Part shown: positions 1 to 35,418 of the stretch, piece after piece | How the letters are laid out: each line of letters starts with the position of its first letter | How positions within the stretch are numbered: the stretch's first letter is position 1 | IMG/VR virus record: IMGVR_UViG_3300002307_000013 | Reading direction: 5' to 3' (one strand) | DNA: 35,444 nucleotides | Origin: a virus | Translations under genes and position numbers: made by a program | Notes under the pieces: model-generated | The model's database searches: none | What the model was told of the DNA's origin: nothing | What the model saw: only the letters and a program-made list of their open reading frames with translations

Positions 1-101
1 CCCCTTGCCCAGCCGATGTCAGCCCAGGAGAATGGAAGCGGAGACGGTTCTTTACAACCGAGGGATGATGACTGATGGGAGTAGAGACAATAATACGTTT
101 A
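1..101. repeat. Terminal direct repeat, identical to 35344-35444. This is either a circular-assembly overlap or a short terminal redundancy. Bases 1-74 duplicate the 3' end of CDS 34264-35418.
   Basis: Reading both ends: ccccttgcccagccgatgtcagcccagg...caataatacgttta occurs at 1-101 and again at 35344-35444. Confidence 0.95.
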
Positions 102-1430
102 AACCGATTTGTTCCACGACCGTATCAACTTCCCATTTTTGATGCGATAGAAAACAAAGGGTATAAGCGAGTTCTTGTCATACTGCCCCGACGTGCGGGA
201 AAAGACATTAGCGCATTCAACCTCGTCATTCGACAAGCGTTACGGAAGGTGGGGGTATATTACTATATATTCCCCACCTATTCCCAGGCGAAGAAGGTTA
301 TCTGGGATTCGATGACTAATGATGGCGACCGATTTTTAGACTATATCCCGCCTGAAATCATAGAGTCTAAAAACTCACAAGAGATGAAGATTCGCTTTAA
401 GAACGGCTCACTTATACAGCTTGTAGGGTCTGATAATTTCGATTCCCTTATGGGAACTAACCCGCGCGGGGTTGTTTTCTCAGAGTATGCATTACAGGAC
501 CCGCGTGCATACCAGTTTATACGCCCTATCTTGGTAGCAAATGACGGATGGGCGCTCTTCCTTTCGACACCACGGGGAAAGAATCATCTCTGGGAATTGT
601 ATAACATAGCGAAGGAATCTCCCCATTGGTTCTGTTTAAAGCTCACGATAGAAGATACAGAACACATCCCTCTTTATGAAATTGAGAAGGAGAAGGCTGA
701 GGGTATTATGTCCGATGATCTTATTCAGCAGGAATATTACACCTCATTCGAGCTCGGCGTTGAGGGTGCTTATTACACAAAATACCTTGATCGCATGAGA
801 ACGAAGGGACAGATTGGCGTCGTTCCTTGGGAGGCTGGGTTTAAAGTTCATACCGCTTGGGACTTGGGAGTTAGGGATTCTACGTGCATCATCTTCTTTC
901 AGACTATAGGCCAGACGGTTCGCATCATCGATTACTATGAGAAGAATAAAGAGGGGTTGGAACACTATGTTAAAGTTATCCAGAATAAGCCCTACTCCTA
1001 TGGCAAGCACATTGCCCCTCATGATATTAAGGTGAAAGAGTTTGGCACTGGCATGACTCGTCTTGAGAAAGCTCGACAGCTTGGAATATCATTCGTTATA
1101 GCGCCAGACCTGAGTGTTATTGATGGTATTGAGGCGGTAAGAAGTGTTCTAAGTAAGATATGGATAGATGAGAATGTGTGCATCCCTCTTATTAAGGCGC
1201 TTGAGAACTATCGCCAGGAGTTTGATGCTAAGAGGAAGGTGTATAAAGATCATCCTTTACATGATGTATGGAGCCATGCAGCCGATGCTATGCGCTATCT
1301 CGCTATATCTTTACCAAAGACGCGGGATGGTTCGAGCGCTCAGGATATTGAGAGGCGATATAATGAAGCGATTTATGGAGGCAATGCGAATATGCCGTCA
1401 GTTTTTCGAAGTGATATTCATGAGTATTAA
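75..1430 (+). CDS. terL: Terminase large subunit
   Basis: 451-aa ORF. It has a Walker A-like LPRRAGKD and a Walker B-like GVVFSEY. The C-terminal RNase-H-like nuclease motifs are AWDLGVRDST, HIAPHD and HAADAMRYL. Its start overlaps the stop of the upstream gene (TGATG), and the portal gene follows. Confidence 0.9.
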   Translation: MGVETIIRLNRFVPRPYQLPIFDAIENKGYKRVLVILPRRAGKDISAFNLVIRQALRKVGVYYYIFPTYSQAKKVIWDSMTNDGDRFLDYIPPEIIESKNSQEMKIRFKNGSLIQLVGSDNFDSLMGTNPRGVVFSEYALQDPRAYQFIRPILVANDGWALFLSTPRGKNHLWELYNIAKESPHWFCLKLTIEDTEHIPLYEIEKEKAEGIMSDDLIQQEYYTSFELGVEGAYYTKYLDRMRTKGQIGVVPWEAGFKVHTAWDLGVRDSTCIIFFQTIGQTVRIIDYYEKNKEGLEHYVKVIQNKPYSYGKHIAPHDIKVKEFGTGMTRLEKARQLGISFVIAPDLSVIDGIEAVRSVLSKIWIDENVCIPLIKALENYRQEFDAKRKVYKDHPLHDVWSHAADAMRYLAISLPKTRDGSSAQDIERRYNEAIYGGNANMPSVFRSDIHEY

Positions 1431-1639
1431 TGTATGAGGAGCTCGCCATCGATAATCTTAAAAACTTTCTCACCTTCAATGAAGTAGCGGAAATATTAGG
1501 CCTTTCTCACCATAAGCTTATTAATCTAGACCTTACTGGAAAACTTGTTCCCTTTGTCGATCCTAAAACTAAGAAGCGGTACTATGATCCAGAAAAGGTA
1601 GAGATAGTTCAGAAAAAGATTGTCTCTAAGCGAGCGTAG
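1430..1639 (+). CDS. Small helix-turn-helix DNA-binding protein (excisionase/MerR-like motif)
   Basis: 69-aa ORF coupled to the terL stop (TAATG). FLTFNEVAEILGLSHHKLINL reads as an HTH. Confidence 0.45.
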   Translation: MYEELAIDNLKNFLTFNEVAEILGLSHHKLINLDLTGKLVPFVDPKTKKRYYDPEKVEIVQKKIVSKRA

Positions 1640-1685
1640 TTGTAGCATAAGTCGAATCTCTCCTCCCTCTTATTGAGGATAAAGA

Positions 1686-3695
1686 ATGCTGTTTCCTCAG
1701 TTAGGCCCAACATATCTCAATGAGAACGATCGTTCAATCATCGCTCGCATGGAGTCTTTCTATGCGGAAAGTATAACGATTAATCAGAGTTTCTGGGCTG
1801 AGGCTGATACGGACACCAGGTTCCACGCAGGAGACCAGCAGCTTTGGTCAGACATATACGGAAACCTGAATGCAAATCGTCGTCGTATGTTCAACTTCAA
1901 TCGCATCCGCCGTGTCATTAATATGATAAGCGGGTATCAAAGAAGAAATCGGAAGTCGACCATTGTGGTTCCTGTTGAGAATGCTGACGCAGAGACTGCT
2001 GATCAATTCACTAAGATTATGATGTGGGTGGCCAACCAAGAAGGAATGCTCGAAACTATTTCCGAGTCTTTCGAAGGGTCGCTTGTTACTGGTATGAATC
2101 TTCTCCAGGTATGGGTCGATTACCGATCGGACCCCGTGTCTGGGAATATACGTGTGGACAACTGTTCATATAATAGCTTCCTTATCGACCCATACTTTCG
2201 CAAGATGGATCTTTCCGACTGTAATTCTATCTGGAAGCGCTCATTCCTTACTAAGAGAGAGGCGGTATCGCTTCTTCCTGAGTATCGCGATGAGATTCTT
2301 GCGCTTCCCGGTAATGATAATGGGTCAGGACGTGATGGTAAATTCCAGTTCATGCCTGAGTCATATAATTATGGTATGAAGAATCTTCTTACTTACGATG
2401 AATTTTACTACCGAGACTACCGCACCCAAAAGATGCTTGTCGATTCACAGACGGGCGAAACTATGGAGTGGAATGGTGATAATGACCGCCTTAGGCAGTT
2501 CATATCTCAATATCCTCAGGTATCAGTCATAGAGAGCGAAATTCCTACCGTTAAGCTCGCTATTGTGGTGCAGGGTAAAGTATTCTACGATGGTCCAAAC
2601 CCAATGGGCATAGACAAATATCCATTCGTTCCTGTTTTCAGCTATTATGCTCCACAAATGCCCTACTTTCCTATCAGGATTCAGGGAGTTGTGCGTGGTT
2701 TAAGGGATGCTCAATACTTATATAATAGGCGCCGGGTTATAGAGCTCGATATTCTTGAGAGCCAGATCAATTCAGGATGGATCTACAAGGAGAACGCGCT
2801 CGTTAATCCTAAGGATGTGTTCTTAAGTGGACAGGGTAGAGGTCTTGCGCTTAAAGAAGAGGCGCAGATGTCCGATGTTCAACAAATACAGCCGCCACAA
2901 GTTCCACCATCCATGATCCAACTTTCTGAGCTTTTAGCACGAGAGGTTCAAGAGATATCAGGAGTGAATGAGGAGCTACTTGGTAGCGCGTCTGATAGCA
3001 AAGCGGGCATTCTTTCAATGCTCCGACAAGGCGCTGGGCTTACTACTCTTCAGGTTCTTTTTGATAACCTCGATCAAGCGCAAAAGCTTCTCGGAAAGCT
3101 TCTTATTAGCATTATTCAGGCCAACTTTACTCCTGGTAAGGTTCAAAAGATACTCGAAGGAGAGCAGCCTGCTCCTCAATTCTATAATAAAGCTTTCGGT
3201 AAGTACGATGCCGCTGTTGAAGAGGGTCTTAATACCGGAACTCAGAAGCAGATGTACTTCGCACAACTTCTCCAACTGAGAGAGGCGGGAATCCCTATCC
3301 CTAATGATGTGATTATAGAGGCTGCAACGCTTCAGAATAAGAAGAAACTTATCGAATCAATGCAACAGGCTGAACAGCAACAGGCTCAAGTTGCTCAGTC
3401 TCAGATGGAATCTCAAATGCAGGAGCAGCAGGCTCGCACAGAACTTGCTCAAGCGCGTGCTGTAGCAGATCGCGGGCTTGGTATTGAGCGCGCAAGTAGA
3501 GTTCAAGAAAATCAGGCGCTCGCTGTAGAACGTCGTGCAGAGGCTGAAAAGGATCGTGATATGGCAGTGCTCAACTTAGCAAGGGCTCTCAAGGAGCTTG
3601 AGGGAGTTGACCTAGACAATATCATGAAGCTTGCTACGCTTGCTCGGGTTGTCTCAAGTAAAGAGCTCCAACCTCAAGAACAAAACGTACAGTAA
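1686..3695 (+). CDS. Portal protein
   Basis: 669-aa ORF immediately after terL, with a GAGGA SD. Its size, position and Gln/Ala-rich C-terminal coiled coil (QQAEQQQAQVAQSQMESQMQEQQARTELAQARA) are typical of podovirus portals. Confidence 0.8.
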   Translation: MLFPQLGPTYLNENDRSIIARMESFYAESITINQSFWAEADTDTRFHAGDQQLWSDIYGNLNANRRRMFNFNRIRRVINMISGYQRRNRKSTIVVPVENADAETADQFTKIMMWVANQEGMLETISESFEGSLVTGMNLLQVWVDYRSDPVSGNIRVDNCSYNSFLIDPYFRKMDLSDCNSIWKRSFLTKREAVSLLPEYRDEILALPGNDNGSGRDGKFQFMPESYNYGMKNLLTYDEFYYRDYRTQKMLVDSQTGETMEWNGDNDRLRQFISQYPQVSVIESEIPTVKLAIVVQGKVFYDGPNPMGIDKYPFVPVFSYYAPQMPYFPIRIQGVVRGLRDAQYLYNRRRVIELDILESQINSGWIYKENALVNPKDVFLSGQGRGLALKEEAQMSDVQQIQPPQVPPSMIQLSELLAREVQEISGVNEELLGSASDSKAGILSMLRQGAGLTTLQVLFDNLDQAQKLLGKLLISIIQANFTPGKVQKILEGEQPAPQFYNKAFGKYDAAVEEGLNTGTQKQMYFAQLLQLREAGIPIPNDVIIEAATLQNKKKLIESMQQAEQQQAQVAQSQMESQMQEQQARTELAQARAVADRGLGIERASRVQENQALAVERRAEAEKDRDMAVLNLARALKELEGVDLDNIMKLATLARVVSSKELQPQEQNVQ

Positions 3696-3710
3696 GCTTA
3701 CGAGGCGCTC

Positions 3711-3935
3711 ATGAAATCCTATCTCCCCATTCTATTGGTATGCTCGTTTTCTCTTATGGGTAATGATGCACAACCGATTCCTGTAGAAAAATCATCAATA
3801 GATTTTAGAGATCCAGAGGATAACTCTTTAAATAATAGCGTCGTATACTTCATCCTTTTCTGTGTCTTAATATACGTGTGCTCAGAGAGGGACCAGGTCC
3901 ATCCATTCGGCGTCGGGTTCTATTTTGATGTATAA
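3711..3935 (+). CDS. Small secreted or membrane protein, function unknown
   Basis: 74 aa. It has a signal-peptide-like N-terminus (MKSYLPILLVCSFSLMG) and a second hydrophobic segment (VVYFILFCVLIYV). A GAGG SD lies upstream. Confidence 0.5.
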   Translation: MKSYLPILLVCSFSLMGNDAQPIPVEKSSIDFRDPEDNSLNNSVVYFILFCVLIYVCSERDQVHPFGVGFYFDV

Positions 3936-4502: not shown

Positions 4503-4760
4503 ATGGCAAAAAAACGTTACCACGAAGGTTACTACGAAGGCATGGATGCCCGTCGTCGCCAAGAAATGGAAGATTCAGGAATGATCCATGAAGATCACCG
4601 AGCAATCGCAAATCTTCCTCAGGAAGTAAAAATTGCACCGTATCCAAAAACAGGACCATACATCCCAGAAGTTCTTGATGATACCATTAGTGGTGTAGAT
4701 ATGCAGATGGATGGCGATGATAAAAAACGTCGTGAGCACTTTAAGCCTAAAAAGGTGTAA
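4503..4760 (+). CDS. Hypothetical small protein (YHEGYYEG...MIHEDxxAIANLPQ motif), paralogous to 4921-5091
   Basis: 85-aa ORF with an AGGAGAG SD. It shares the block D-x-RR-x-QE-xx-DS-x-MI-xx-D-xx-A-x-AN-x-P...PK with the next-but-one ORF. Confidence 0.65.
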   Translation: MAKKRYHEGYYEGMDARRRQEMEDSGMIHEDHRAIANLPQEVKIAPYPKTGPYIPEVLDDTISGVDMQMDGDDKKRREHFKPKKV

Positions 4761-4912
4761 TGATGCCGTCGATGCCAAGAGTTCCTGGAAAGGGAAAGAA
4801 GATCGCTTACAAGCTGCTTGGTATTCCTGCCAATATAGCCGCTAAGCAGACTCCTTCTCAAAAGGAAGCTGATCAACGGCTTACCTTCCAGCAGACTGCT
4901 CGATCTAAATAG
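4760..4912 (+). CDS. Small basic hypothetical protein (50 aa, below the ORF-track cutoff)
   Basis: ATG overlaps the upstream stop (TAATG). Translation: MMPSMPRVPGKGKKIAYKLLGIPANIAAKQTPSQKEADQRLTFQQTARSK. Confidence 0.4.
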   Translation: MMPSMPRVPGKGKKIAYKLLGIPANIAAKQTPSQKEADQRLTFQQTARSK

Positions 4913-4920
4913 GAGCGCCT

Positions 4921-5091
4921 ATGTTCTTTTATGATTCAAAAATAGATCCGCGTCGAGCTCAAGAGAAACGCGATAGCCTCATGATAGAGCCTGACAAAAC
5001 AGCGATGGCTAACTGCCCGCGCCAGGCAATACATCATGAGTGGCCAAAGCTTATCTATAACCCCCACATTATTGATCAAGGAATTGATTAA
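4921..5091 (+). CDS. Small hypothetical protein (56 aa), paralogue of 4503-4760
   Basis: AGGAG SD 6 nt upstream. Translation: MFFYDSKIDPRRAQEKRDSLMIEPDKTAMANCPRQAIHHEWPKLIYNPHIIDQGID, which aligns with 4503-4760. Confidence 0.5.
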   Translation: MFFYDSKIDPRRAQEKRDSLMIEPDKTAMANCPRQAIHHEWPKLIYNPHIIDQGID

Positions 5092-5092
5092 C

Positions 5093-5329
5093 ATGGCAAA
5101 ATGTAGCAAATGCTCAAAGATGATGGAAAAGGAAGTCTCTCGAGACGAGAAGCTCTCTAAAGTCACTACCCACAAAGGTAAGGGCAAGGTTGAAAAAGTT
5201 ATGAAGGAGTTCAAAAAGGATGAACTTCATAGCGGAAGCAAAAAGGGACCTCTTGTTAAGAATCCTAAGCAAGCCATCGCCATAGCTTTAAGTGAGGGTC
5301 GCAAGGCTCAGAAGCGGCGTAAAAAATAA
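5093..5329 (+). CDS. Small Lys-rich protein, DUF6496-like
   Basis: I prefer ATG 5093 (MAKCSKCSK...) over the track start at 5036, which would overlap the preceding ORF. From memory, the motif KVMKEFKKDELHSGSKKG...KQAIAIALSEGRKA matches the KQAIAIALSEAR signature of that family. Confidence 0.6.
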   Translation: MAKCSKCSKMMEKEVSRDEKLSKVTTHKGKGKVEKVMKEFKKDELHSGSKKGPLVKNPKQAIAIALSEGRKAQKRRKK

Positions 5330-10779: not shown

Positions 10780-10945
10780 ATGTCAATAACGACAACCAGC
10801 ACGCTGCCCGCTCCAGTTCAGCAGAGCTTTAGCTATAAGCTCCTGAGCGTGCCCGTGCCAAATATGATTCATAAAATACCTGCCATGCTCAAACAGATGC
10901 CCCGCAATGGTGGTACGACGTTAAGGATGCGACGGTATAATCCAT
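10780..10945 (+). CDS. Major capsid protein, exon 1 (N4-gp56/HK97-type family)
   Basis: GAGGT SD upstream. The N-terminal block SFSYKLLSVPVPNMIHKIPAMLKQMPRNGGTTLRMRRYNPL matches, from memory, the pattern ...L.....P.lvh......k.lp.nsG.t..fRRY..L. Family similarity is lost after 10945. Confidence 0.8.
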
Positions 10946-11150
10946 TAATATTAGTGGATGTAAAATTTTCTCTTATTGACTTGGAAGCCGTAGCGTAAGA
11001 GCCGGTGACAAGGGGCAAGCGAAAGCAGCCTGAACGACTAAGTGAGAAGACCTCGAAAGAGGATGCGATAGTCTGAACTCCATGGAAACATGGAGAGGAG
11101 CTCCCGAAGAGGACTCCCGCCTTAAAAGAGGTCTCAAAAGTAACAGAATG
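10946..11150 (+). ncRNA. Group I self-splicing intron (about 205 nt, no ORF)
   Basis: P1 pairs AUCCAU (10940-45) with GUGGAU (10954-59), placing U10945 in a G-U wobble with G10954. The terminal G is at 11150. P3 pairs 10966-72 with 11044-50. P7 pairs GACUA (11036-40) with UAGUC (11069-73). P8 is CCUC-GAAA-GAGG (11051-62) and P9 is CUCCAUG-GAAA-CAUGGAG (11078-95). An S-like GCGAUAGUCUGAAC string is present. Splicing restores one continuous 315-aa capsid ORF. Confidence 0.8.
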
Positions 11151-11932
11151 TAAACACCGCAATGGTTCCTCTTGGAAACTCTGGTGTTACTCCTCCAGCC
11201 CAAAATCTGACCGCTGTCGATATCGACGCAAAGATCAGCTTTTATGGCACCTATGTTCAGATTAATGAGCAGGTAACATTACAAAACCAAGACCCAGTAC
11301 TTAATGAATGTGCTGCGCGTCTTGGGGTATCACTTCGCCAAACAGAAGATCAGCTTACTCGCGACATGCTTGTTAGTACTGCTGCTTTCATTAACTGTAC
11401 TGGTGGTGTGAATGGTGACAACCCAACTCAAATTACACGATCAGATGTTAACACGGTGGTTCGTACGCTGTTGAACAACAACGCATATACCATCATGGAT
11501 AACATTGAAGGTGAAGATAAGTTCGGGACTGCACCAGTTCGTGATGCATACTTCGCACTTTGCTCAACAAACTTAACGGGCAACTTGGATAACGTTGCTG
11601 GATTCATTCAAAAGAACCAGTACCCAGCTCCTATGAACGCTCTTAAGTCTGAGTGGGGAGCTGTTGGAAACCTTCGTTTCCTTGTGTCTTCTATCGGATC
11701 AGTAACAGCAAATGCTTCTATGCTTGGAGCAAATGTGTACAACATTCCTTGCGTAGGTATGGAAGCATACGCATGTATCGAACAAGACGGATACTCGTCA
11801 AGCTTCGTCTATCGTCCGCCAATTTTCGATGGCCCATTGGCACTTAATGCTTCTGTAGGCTATAAATTTGCCGAAGTTCCCCGAATCACCAATGATTTGT
11901 GGGTTATCAATCTTCGCGCAACCCTTGCGTAA
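11151..11932 (+). CDS. Major capsid protein, exon 2
   Basis: This exon continues the family pattern: (L)NTAMVPLGNSGVTPPAQNLTAVDIDAKISFYGTYVQINEQVTLQNQDPVLNECAARLGVSLRQTEDQLTRDML. The track ORF 11162-11932 is its in-frame core. Exon 1 plus exon 2 total 948 nt. Confidence 0.8.
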
Positions 11933-33452: not shown

Positions 33453-34166
33453 ATGTCGAACAATAAGCATGGTTGGACTTGTGCGGGATTTTCAAAAGAC
33501 CCTGCGCTCTCTGTCTGGAAAACAATCATGAGGAAATCATTTCTTCCTGGCGCTAGAGGATATCGATCGGTAGGAGCGCTAGGTCGTGGGGCTCCGGTAC
33601 ATTGGAGAGATATGGCGGCATTTATCAAAGATGTCGGAGATCGTCCTAATAGGCTTTGGCTTCTAAGAAAAGATATAACTCTCCCATATAGCAAGGAGAA
33701 CTGTTATTGGGGAAATCCAAAGGATTTTCAAAAAGAAAAACCAAGGCCAGAAAATATACATGGAGTCATTGGAAAGAAGTACGGGAAATGGACCCCTATT
33801 TCCTATTTTAACAAAGGGAAGAGAAGATTTTATGTATGTAGATGTGATTGTGGGAATGTTTTTGACGTTAACTCATCTAGTTTAAAAAGTTTAGATTCAA
33901 CTCAATGTAGACTTTGTGGCCAGTTTAAAATCACAAAAAGTACTAAGGAAAGATACCAGTCTGAATGGTCTTTGATTAAGGATTCATTTATTGGACGAAC
34001 TTTTGGAGAATGGACCATAATTGGGACTCTTGAAGAATCAAAAGGCGGAAAGCATATATTTATCTGTCAGTGCTCATGTGGCAATCAGAAGGAGATGCAA
34101 AGAGGGTCGTTTTTTTATGGGAATTCTAAGATGTGTATAATTTGTTCGAAGCGAAAAAGATACTAG
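33453..34166 (+). CDS. Zn-ribbon repeat protein (237 aa) between terS and terL
   Basis: There are two repeats of G-K/E-WT-x-I...(F/Y)(V/I)C-x-C-x-CGN...C-x-x-C. The N-terminal block SVWKTIMRK...HWRDMAAFIKDVGDRPNRLWLLRKD...ENCYWGN resembles, from memory, a common phage family of HNH-neighbouring or AP2-like proteins. I saw no HNH motif. Confidence 0.5.
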   Translation: MSNNKHGWTCAGFSKDPALSVWKTIMRKSFLPGARGYRSVGALGRGAPVHWRDMAAFIKDVGDRPNRLWLLRKDITLPYSKENCYWGNPKDFQKEKPRPENIHGVIGKKYGKWTPISYFNKGKRRFYVCRCDCGNVFDVNSSSLKSLDSTQCRLCGQFKITKSTKERYQSEWSLIKDSFIGRTFGEWTIIGTLEESKGGKHIFICQCSCGNQKEMQRGSFFYGNSKMCIICSKRKRY

Positions 34167-34263: not shown

Positions 34264-35418
34264 ATGATTATTCTTTTATGGTGGCTTTTTGTATCATGTC
34301 TCTCCGTGGCTTCAGAACATAGTCTTCAATTGAAGCCAATACCTACTTACGCAGCGCTCTCTAGTGAGCAATTCGATAGAACATACCGTGACCCCAAAAC
34401 AGAGGCAGAGCTCATAATCCCCGAAGCTCCGCAGGGATTTCGTCGTCCTGTGTTGTCACATGAAATTAACCCTTCCTATTTTATGGCAGGTGGTGCGATA
34501 CTGGTGGCCGCAGGATATGCGTTACCCTACGCGATGACCGCTGTAGCTCAGGGAGTTGAGCAATCGATGAATGTGCTTTTACAGGATGTAATAAATAGCC
34601 CAGCAAAGCTGTTAAAGGCAGCAGGGATGATCACTACTCTTTGCGCTGTTGGATGGCAGCGATGGAGAAGATATGAGGCAGATATGTCGGGAATATCTGA
34701 TCAGCTTCTTTCTTACCATCAGTATGCTCTTGCATCTCGAGATGCTATGGGTGGTATGCTCGGTCTGATTAAACAATACCAAGATGTTGCATATAGGGCT
34801 GAAAAGAGATCGCTTTATACCTTTGCTGCTCTGTCTCACTTTATAGAATATAACCGCTCAGTTTCAAATGAAATGAATGCTAATATGCAGAAGATTGGTA
34901 AGCATACACATGAGCCCGACGATAAAAGGCTGTCTTCAGATCTTACAGGGGTTCGGTCACAACTTGCGCATCTTTCTTCTGAGGCAAGTCGAACATCTCA
35001 AGCATCAGCCTTTAATAAACAGAGTATTGAGGCATTGGGCGCTGAGATGAGAGTGATAGCAAGCCGCGTTTCTGAGAACTCTCATGCGCATACGCAAAGT
35101 ATTATTGCTCTTGGGGCAGAAGTGAGGTCTATGGGAGATAGATTCTCTTCTGAGATTCATACGCTTACTGAAAGGATGAATGCACCATCAGCTTTTCAGG
35201 GGGCAAAACGAGCTTTTTTGCAGACAATCACCTCAGTATCTCAACCGTCCGGGAGGAGACCGAGTTTGAGCGGCAGCAGCTCCTCGACTCCACAGATTCC
35301 ACCGAGTCCTACCCCCTCGTCATCACCGTCAGTGGCCCAAACACCCCTTGCCCAGCCGATGTCAGCCCAGGAGAATGGAAGCGGAGACGGTTCTTTACAA
35401 CCGAGGGATGATGACTGA
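34264..35418 (+). CDS. Membrane-anchored coiled-coil protein with a Ser/Pro-rich C-terminus (384 aa)
   Basis: AGGAG SD. It has a signal-like N-terminus (MIILLWWLFVSCLSVAS) and hydrophobic segments GGAILVAAGYALPYAMTAVA and AAGMITTLCAVGW. An internal repeat reads QSIEALGAEMRV / QSIIALGAEVRS. The tail is SLSGSSSSTPQIPPSPTPSSSPS. The stop overlaps the terL ATG (TGATG). Confidence 0.6.
   Translation: MIILLWWLFVSCLSVASEHSLQLKPIPTYAALSSEQFDRTYRDPKTEAELIIPEAPQGFRRPVLSHEINPSYFMAGGAILVAAGYALPYAMTAVAQGVEQSMNVLLQDVINSPAKLLKAAGMITTLCAVGWQRWRRYEADMSGISDQLLSYHQYALASRDAMGGMLGLIKQYQDVAYRAEKRSLYTFAALSHFIEYNRSVSNEMNANMQKIGKHTHEPDDKRLSSDLTGVRSQLAHLSSEASRTSQASAFNKQSIEALGAEMRVIASRVSENSHAHTQSIIALGAEVRSMGDRFSSEIHTLTERMNAPSAFQGAKRAFLQTITSVSQPSGRRPSLSGSSSSTPQIPPSPTPSSSPSVAQTPLAQPMSAQENGSGDGSLQPRDDD

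Follow-up and report, generated by a model that had tools for sequence, protein, structure and literature searches.

Positions 10946-11150 of the window, the whole 35,444-nt stretch of phage DNA that was analysed, very probably (at a probability we put at about 0.92) constitute a compact, ORF-less group I self-splicing intron that interrupts the major capsid gene of an uncultivated phage of ~35 kb. The indel-free exon junction, the covarying helices and the MFE fold are far more than chance would produce. The original prediction had read the insert as a group I element, and this reading is supported by intron-less homologues, by covariation within a family of related introns and by the in-frame restoration of unrelated host genes. 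From the anatomy of the intron we infer its catalysis, its autonomy and its efficiency, and its removal may in turn gate the yield of virions.

The capsid reading frame appears in the ORF list as two ORFs in different frames, 10780-10998 (72 aa) and 11162-11932 (256 aa). Exon 1 (10780..10945; all exon and intron features described here are on the plus strand) was delimited from the ORF list and from the alignment to uninterrupted homologues, and consists of 55 codons plus one nucleotide, ending in ...RRYNP followed by U. Exon 2 (11151..11932) starts with UA, which completes the codon of Leu56, and ends with the stop at 11930-32. Conceptual splicing of U10945 to U11151 results in a gene of 948 nt that encodes 315 aa; the broken frame and its repair by removal of 10946-11150 agree with the original prediction in coordinates and in both lengths. 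The conceptually spliced protein matches the major head protein phrog_1357 (8e-31) and Pfam Phage_capsid_4, and among 5.8 billion protein clusters a search detected over 120 homologues that are uninterrupted and 314-317 aa long (85-93% identity, 99-100% coverage), several of which bear the name 'N4-gp56 family major capsid protein'. When the homologues are aligned at RRYNPL|NTAMVPLGN, RRYNPL never varies and NTAMVPLGN hardly or not at all, and the gap-free junction against more than 120 homologues is the outcome that had been proposed as a check on the spliced protein. An exact look-up of the spliced 315-aa protein in a collection of 15 billion proteins found no entry.

The insertion is exact, since the intron-less alleles L122 and L123 match across the junction. 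At the site where AATCCAT[205 nt]TAAACAC stands in the window, L123 has AATCCATTGAACAC, and comparison with the intron-less alleles showed that the insertion at the capsid site is repeat-free, with neither terminal inverted repeats nor target duplication. The spliced capsid is predicted to contain the junction peptide YNPLNTAMVPLGNSGVTPPAQ, encoded by an RNA in which ...AATCCAT is joined to TAAACACC.

The 205-nt insert, whose boundaries are exact against L122/L123, scores 128.2 bits (E 2e-27) with the family covariance model R1. P1 (10940..10959) pairs the exon sequence AUCCAU (10940-45) with the guide GUGGAU (10954-59) in 6 bp, closing a loop at 10946-53 and leaving a U10945-G10954 wobble at the 5' splice site; it is seen in the sequence and in the MFE fold, and is backed by the P1 test in the family. 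The sequence also offers a P10 of 3 bp between the guide UUA (10951-53) and the exon-2 UAA (11151-53). P3 (10966..10972 / 11044..11050) is followed by P4 (10980-83 / 11009-12), the A-rich joining segment J4/5 GAA (10984-86), P5 (10987-90 / 11003-06), J5/4 GA (11007-08), P6 (11013-16 / 11028-31) and P6a (11019-20 / 11025-26), which is capped by a GAAA loop. P7 consists of GACUA (11036-40) and UAGUC (11069-73), and its G11036-C11073 pair is, judging from the sequence, the presumed guanosine-binding pair. The P8 hairpin CCUC-GAAA-GAGG (11051..11062) leads into J8/7 AUGCGA (11063-68). P3 and P7 cross each other and therefore form the group I pseudoknot. The 3' domain holds P9.0 (UG 11074-75 / CA 11144-45), the P9 hairpin with a GAAA loop (11078..11095), the P9.1 hairpin with a bulged C11101 and a CGAAGA loop (11097..11117), and the P9.2 hairpin GCCU/AGGU (11119..11132), in whose loop the endonuclease ORF of relatives sits. 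The conserved 3' tail GUAACAGAAUG (11140..11150) ends in the terminal guanosine G11150, a boundary fixed independently by the intron-less homologues, and GUAAYAR is kept in the family.

P1, P3, P7, the terminal G and the 3-bp P10 all lie where the original prediction had placed them, and the three GAAA-capped hairpins that it listed are present at 11014-30 (P6/P6a), 11051-62 (P8) and 11078-95 (P9); P4, P5, P9.0, P9.1 and P9.2 are additions of our analysis. Its description of an intron without a homing endonuclease also holds, as there is no ORF within 10946-11150 and the overlapping reverse-strand ORFs have no Pfam match. Calling the element minimal in size was roughly right, but some family members are smaller, down to ~196 nt. 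The window copy has no P2, because only six unpaired bases (10960-65) separate P1 and P3, and no P7.1/P7.2, because P8 starts at 11051, directly after the last base of the P3 3' strand (11050); P7.1/P7.2 are likewise missing between these elements across the family alignment. A P7 motif scan and the model R1 detected no second intron copy in the window.

Two further complementarities were seen in the window copy. AGACCUC (11048-54) is perfectly complementary to GAGGUCU (11128-34), giving a 7-bp alternative to P8/P9.2; this pairing was set aside, since the family does not conserve it and it probably arose by chance. The invariant J3/4 UUGAC (10976-10980 in the window) is complementary to a GGUCA located after P9.2 in most family members; the window has GGUCU (11130-11134) in its place, which leaves 3 bp, and some members have no GGUCA. 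This could be a tertiary pairing, of a kind beyond the reach of covariation because both of its sides are invariant.

To evaluate the structure across the family, 89 distinct copies were aligned with MAFFT, which is blind to structure, and the helix assignment of the window copy was superimposed. In this alignment 88.9% of the cells pair, against 71.7% after shuffling, and both partners vary in 34 of 50 pairs. The covariation score of 0.461 compares with 0.148 for the shuffled alignments, none of 500 shuffles reached it, and sliding the partners by 1-3 columns lowered it to 0.05-0.14. The helices that covary are P3, P6, P8, P9 and P9.0: all seven pairs of P3 (98% of cells paired), five of the six pairs of P6 and P6a taken together, all four pairs of P8, and five of six in P9, while in P9.0 a G-C pair is replaced by A-U in two aligned copies, L119 and L086, and, on inspection by eye, in L002 as well. 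One pair of P5 covaries (97% of cells paired), and P9.1 shows changes on both sides in 6/7 pairs with 75% of cells paired. The covariation count for P9.2 is not usable, as MAFFT misaligned this helix. P4 (100% of cells paired, invariant or with wobbles only) and P7 (invariant, 100% paired) never vary, so that covariation is silent on both, and their invariance is partly forced by the search pattern that collected the family. J4/5 is invariant or nearly so, and the J8/7 columns are nearly invariant. A copy from Roseobacter phage CRP-118, which was found by blastn and not by the pattern, still scores 102.6 bits with R1. The nested MFE fold of 10940-11156 has an energy of -63.4 kcal/mol (z -3.59) and recovers P1, P4, P5, P6, P6a, P7, P8, P9, P9.1 and P9.2.

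To evaluate substrate recognition, the six bases located at a constant distance before P3 were compared with six-base strings shortly upstream of them. In 60 of 95 distinct copies, with 30 different guide sequences among them, a 6-bp P1 beginning with a U-G pair forms against the copy's own exon; when the guides were permuted among the introns, 8.1 copies on average, and never more than 15, gave such a helix. The guide of each copy thus fits the exon of that copy, the hallmark of group I substrate recognition. At the 3' end, a terminal G is located 4 nt after GUAAYAR in 51/62 copies, and a P10 of at least 3 bp is present in 36/62.

The Rfam group I model RF00028, which the original prediction had proposed as a check, gave no match at the gathering threshold in the whole window, none at E <= 10 on 10850-11250, and none at the gathering threshold in any of 18 family loci. 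The same model also falls short of its gathering score of 50 on two T4 introns, td with 40.3 bits and nrdB with 35.7 bits (the T4 introns were taken from L124, 11596-11826 and 6509-6749, minus strand). Scans at the gathering threshold thus miss even textbook phage group I introns, and the negative result reflects a limit of the model and is not evidence against the intron. The family model R1 found no match on the T4 td or nrdB introns, so there is no model-based link of the family to subgroup IA2. No established subgroup was assigned to the window intron because P2 and P7.1/P7.2 are absent: the P7.1/P7.2 helices expected for IA2 are lacking in the window copy, and the P2 helix and tRNA anticodon loop expected for IC3 are replaced by a protein-coding host gene and a core that has no P2.

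The family is large and mostly ORF-less. An exact pattern built from two conserved strings matched at least 119 IMG/VR contigs, and the model R1, which covers the P3-P9 core, detected 134 copies spread over 100 loci, with frequent pairs or triplets and no more than three per locus. The core measures 178-249 nt in 115 of 127 copies, leaving no room for an ORF. Only five MAG contigs matched the pattern among bacterial and archaeal genomes, which therefore gave no clue to the host; the relatives come from environmental phage contigs, one relative being from a freshwater spring and another from a marine isolate. With blastn, the insert by itself (10960-11121) matched sequences in two unrelated phages at 73-77% identity. 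The first of these sequences (MW202674.1, L001) has a family member between two annotated 'P22 coat protein' fragments, with the in-frame join FHVD|TQFTT, a P1 of GUGGAU/GUCCAC with a U-G wobble, and a G at the intron end. In L001 (2193-3708) two CDS are annotated for the P22-type coat gene, and the 'hypothetical protein' CDS inside the intron core (2515-2634) is probably spurious. Some family members, the copy in L001 among them, have a P2 hairpin, whereas the window copy has none. The second phage, Nitratidesulfovibrio phage SRB7757 (PV062637.1, L002), has a family member in nrdD, with the in-frame join EVVP|GESLG, a P1 of GUGCCU/GGGCAC with a U-G wobble, and again a terminal G. The order in this phage is the N-terminal part of the anaerobic ribonucleotide reductase, the intron match, an HNH ORF and the NrdD C-terminus; the intron measures 926 nt (L002 2482-3407), and the HNH_3 ORF (2706-3359) is inserted at P9.2. 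The upstream 807-aa ORF of L002 (region 82-3854) seems to hold an intein-like insert (CFGGDQ...ITHNC). In phage CRP-118 (OR420741.1 ~35075-35208; L133 2501-2634) the copy is located between two 'ribonucleotide reductase' CDS, gp44 and gp45, and the element reads as an unannotated intron in a cultured marine phage.

A minority of the family copies have an endonuclease gene, HNH or LAGLIDADG, in their 3' domain, and most have none. A LAGLIDADG_1 ORF in the family intron of L096 (~4570-5100) is preceded by a TTGACA...TATAAT-like promoter inside the intron, and together with the HNH_3 ORF of L002 it shows that the family hosts at least two endonuclease classes. The window itself also encodes an HNH endonuclease outside the intron, in a free-standing ORF 22 kb away (33453-34166, plus strand; phrog_374, 1.3e-24, no Pfam match). 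In principle, such an enzyme could act in trans to mobilise the intron, which has no ORF.

Insertion sites in the capsid protein were mapped by aligning the junction peptides of family members to it. This procedure replaced an automated ORF-restoration test (flanks of 90-150 nt) that only 17-35 copies passed, apparently because many host genes hold several closely spaced introns. Ten positions are well supported, after residues 12, 55 (the window), 70, 93, 104, 116, 144, 176, 181 and 228, and three weaker ones lie after residues 31, 214 and 292. The capsid sites come from the IMG/VR contigs L008, L027, L028, L050, L062, L077, L080, L084-L086, L090, L092, L098, L117 and L119, and loci with two or three copies include L046, L007, L008, L080, L086 and L090. 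The ORF-less copies, their presence several to a gene, the site-matched guides and the ten capsid positions suggest that family members often move to new sites, perhaps through reverse splicing. With P2 optional, no P7.1/P7.2, an invariant J3/4 UUGAC and a conserved 3' tail GUAACAG, the family might represent an undescribed compact subclass of group I ribozymes whose ORF-less copies spread by reverse splicing; we regard this as a tentative proposal with the odds somewhat against it. If it were true, the family would be an unusually rich natural source of evidence that group I introns transpose to ectopic sites.

According to the preferred reading, the late capsid transcript would fold so that the exon AUCCAU pairs with the guide GUGGAU to form P1, and a free guanosine held at P7 (G11036-C11073) would attack after U10945. 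G11150 would then occupy the guanosine site, placed by the 2-bp P9.0 and the 3-bp P10, and ligation of the exons would produce the mRNA for a 315-aa capsid protein of the N4-gp56/HK97 type. The observations set against this reading are the lack of an RF00028 match, the absence of the exact spliced protein from the protein collection, the P10 of only 3 bp, the uninformative P4 and P7, the missing P2 and P7.1/P7.2, and the failure of R1 to match the T4 introns. Among the competing explanations, the strongest accepts group I descent and holds that the intron does not splice alone, either needing a protein cofactor from host or phage or splicing inefficiently and acting as a brake on capsid production. 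The very small size of the ribozyme, which has none of the P2, P5abc and P7.1/P7.2 elements that stabilise other group I cores, and the absence of a maturase or endonuclease ORF in the intron would fit such a dependence. However, the three GAAA tetraloops and the well-formed P9, P9.1 and P9.2 are peripheral elements of a typically self-stabilising kind, the lineage of the phage is abundant, and introns of similar size do self-splice, as the Azoarcus tRNA intron does. We consider dependence on a cofactor or a braking role unlikely.

That the insert is never removed, and that the phage makes two polypeptides of 72 and 256 aa or carries a capsid pseudogene in a defective genome, is very improbable. 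Gene callers do annotate two ORFs, and the ATG at 11162 corresponds to Met60 in the uninterrupted capsid protein; yet this ATG has no Shine-Dalgarno sequence, whereas the starts at 10780 (GAGGT) and 11944 (AAGGAG) have one. Hundreds of homologues are single chains of 314-317 aa, and PHROG scans of the window, which carries terminase, portal and virion genes, revealed no further capsid gene. The same arrangement recurs in many full-length contigs of ~35 kb from different samples: the products of the two ORFs are recorded from 64 contigs (72 aa) and 77 contigs (256 aa) of JGI, ENA and Logan assemblies, mostly of 20-50 kb, and among the samples in which this phage occurs are those of ENA ERZ19049754 and ERZ19048332 (run ERR11413649). 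Comparison of three independent assemblies of ~35.3 kb showed 100% identity over the capsid gene and its intron, so that the split gene is neither an artefact nor dead. An essential gene kept split in a successful lineage points to removal of the insert, and the conserved, covarying RNA structure is common to inserts in unrelated genes. Least credible of all is that the gap is crossed in translation, by bypassing or frameshifting, or that the insert is a mobile element of a different kind, for instance a group II intron or a MITE. The exons do lie in different frames and the gap is short, but 205 nt is far beyond the distances of ribosomal bypassing known to us, and another type of element is contradicted by the P1-P9 topology, the P3/P7 pseudoknot, the U-G 5' site and the terminal G kept across ~90 copies, as well as by the repeat-free insertion itself.

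If the group I reading is correct, the annotation has to be amended, as the two 'genes' of 72 and 256 aa are one essential capsid gene, whose expression must then, as predicted from the sequence, depend on RNA splicing. The window intron is an entry point to an abundant intron family unseen by Rfam, and introduces no new principle. The family targets capsid genes repeatedly, with at least 10 sites in one capsid family and further copies in P22-type coat genes. Because the family is abundant, invisible to Rfam and found repeatedly in capsid genes, split structural genes are probably under-annotated in viromes. CRP-118 and SRB7757 are cultured carriers, which makes the splicing prediction testable at the bench.

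Comparison with known systems indicates that the window intron joins an already known phenomenon, as group I introns in phage structural genes are established. The IC3 introns, such as those of Azoarcus tRNA-Ile and Anabaena tRNA-Leu, measure ~200-250 nt, have a P2 helix and reside in tRNA anticodon loops. The window intron resembles them in its size, in a simple P4-P6 without P5abc, and in the presence of P6a, P9.0 and GNRA tetraloops; it differs in passing from P1 through six unpaired bases directly to P3, without P2 and without a tRNA host. With the T4 td, nrdB and nrdD/sunY introns (IA2) it shares a phage genome, the U-G 5' splice site and the terminal G. The likeness to td extends to the P7 strands and their flanks, which are nearly identical: AACGACUA and AUAGUCUG occur in the td intron as well. 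The 3' tails are also alike (AACAUAAUG versus AACAGAAUG), and the family member in a phage nrdD with an HNH ORF in its 3' domain recalls the T4 nrdD intron. In contrast to these T4 introns, the window intron has no P7.1/P7.2, P2 or ORF.

Introns in virion structural genes are also known from the Cluster J mycobacteriophages LittleE and BAKA, whose capsid and tail genes carry group I introns that are spliced out in late expression; the same report cites an intron in the capsid gene of the lactococcal phage Tuc2009 (PMC3706429). The BAKA tail-gene intron measures 265 nt and has no endonuclease gene, and in each of these introns U ends exon 1 and G ends the intron (PMC3706429), as in the window. 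The Cluster J introns were shown to splice by RT-PCR, whereas splicing of the window intron is predicted from its sequence; they belong to phages of other hosts with no detected sequence relationship, and the LittleE capsid intron has a LAGLIDADG-like ORF (PMC3706429). Closer in size are the abundant group I introns of ~206 nt in the gut Jug jumbo phages, which are mostly ORF-less, number many per genome, and were confirmed as spliced by metatranscriptome reads in 37 of 76 cases (PMC12880540), while crAss-like phages have introns in their MCP genes (PMC7886860). These introns fall in the same size class as the window intron and interrupt core genes that include MCP, terL and nrdD (PMC12880540, PMC7886860); they were found with subgroup covariance models. 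They differ in that the window intron is a single copy in a 35-kb genome and its family comes from environmental phage contigs.
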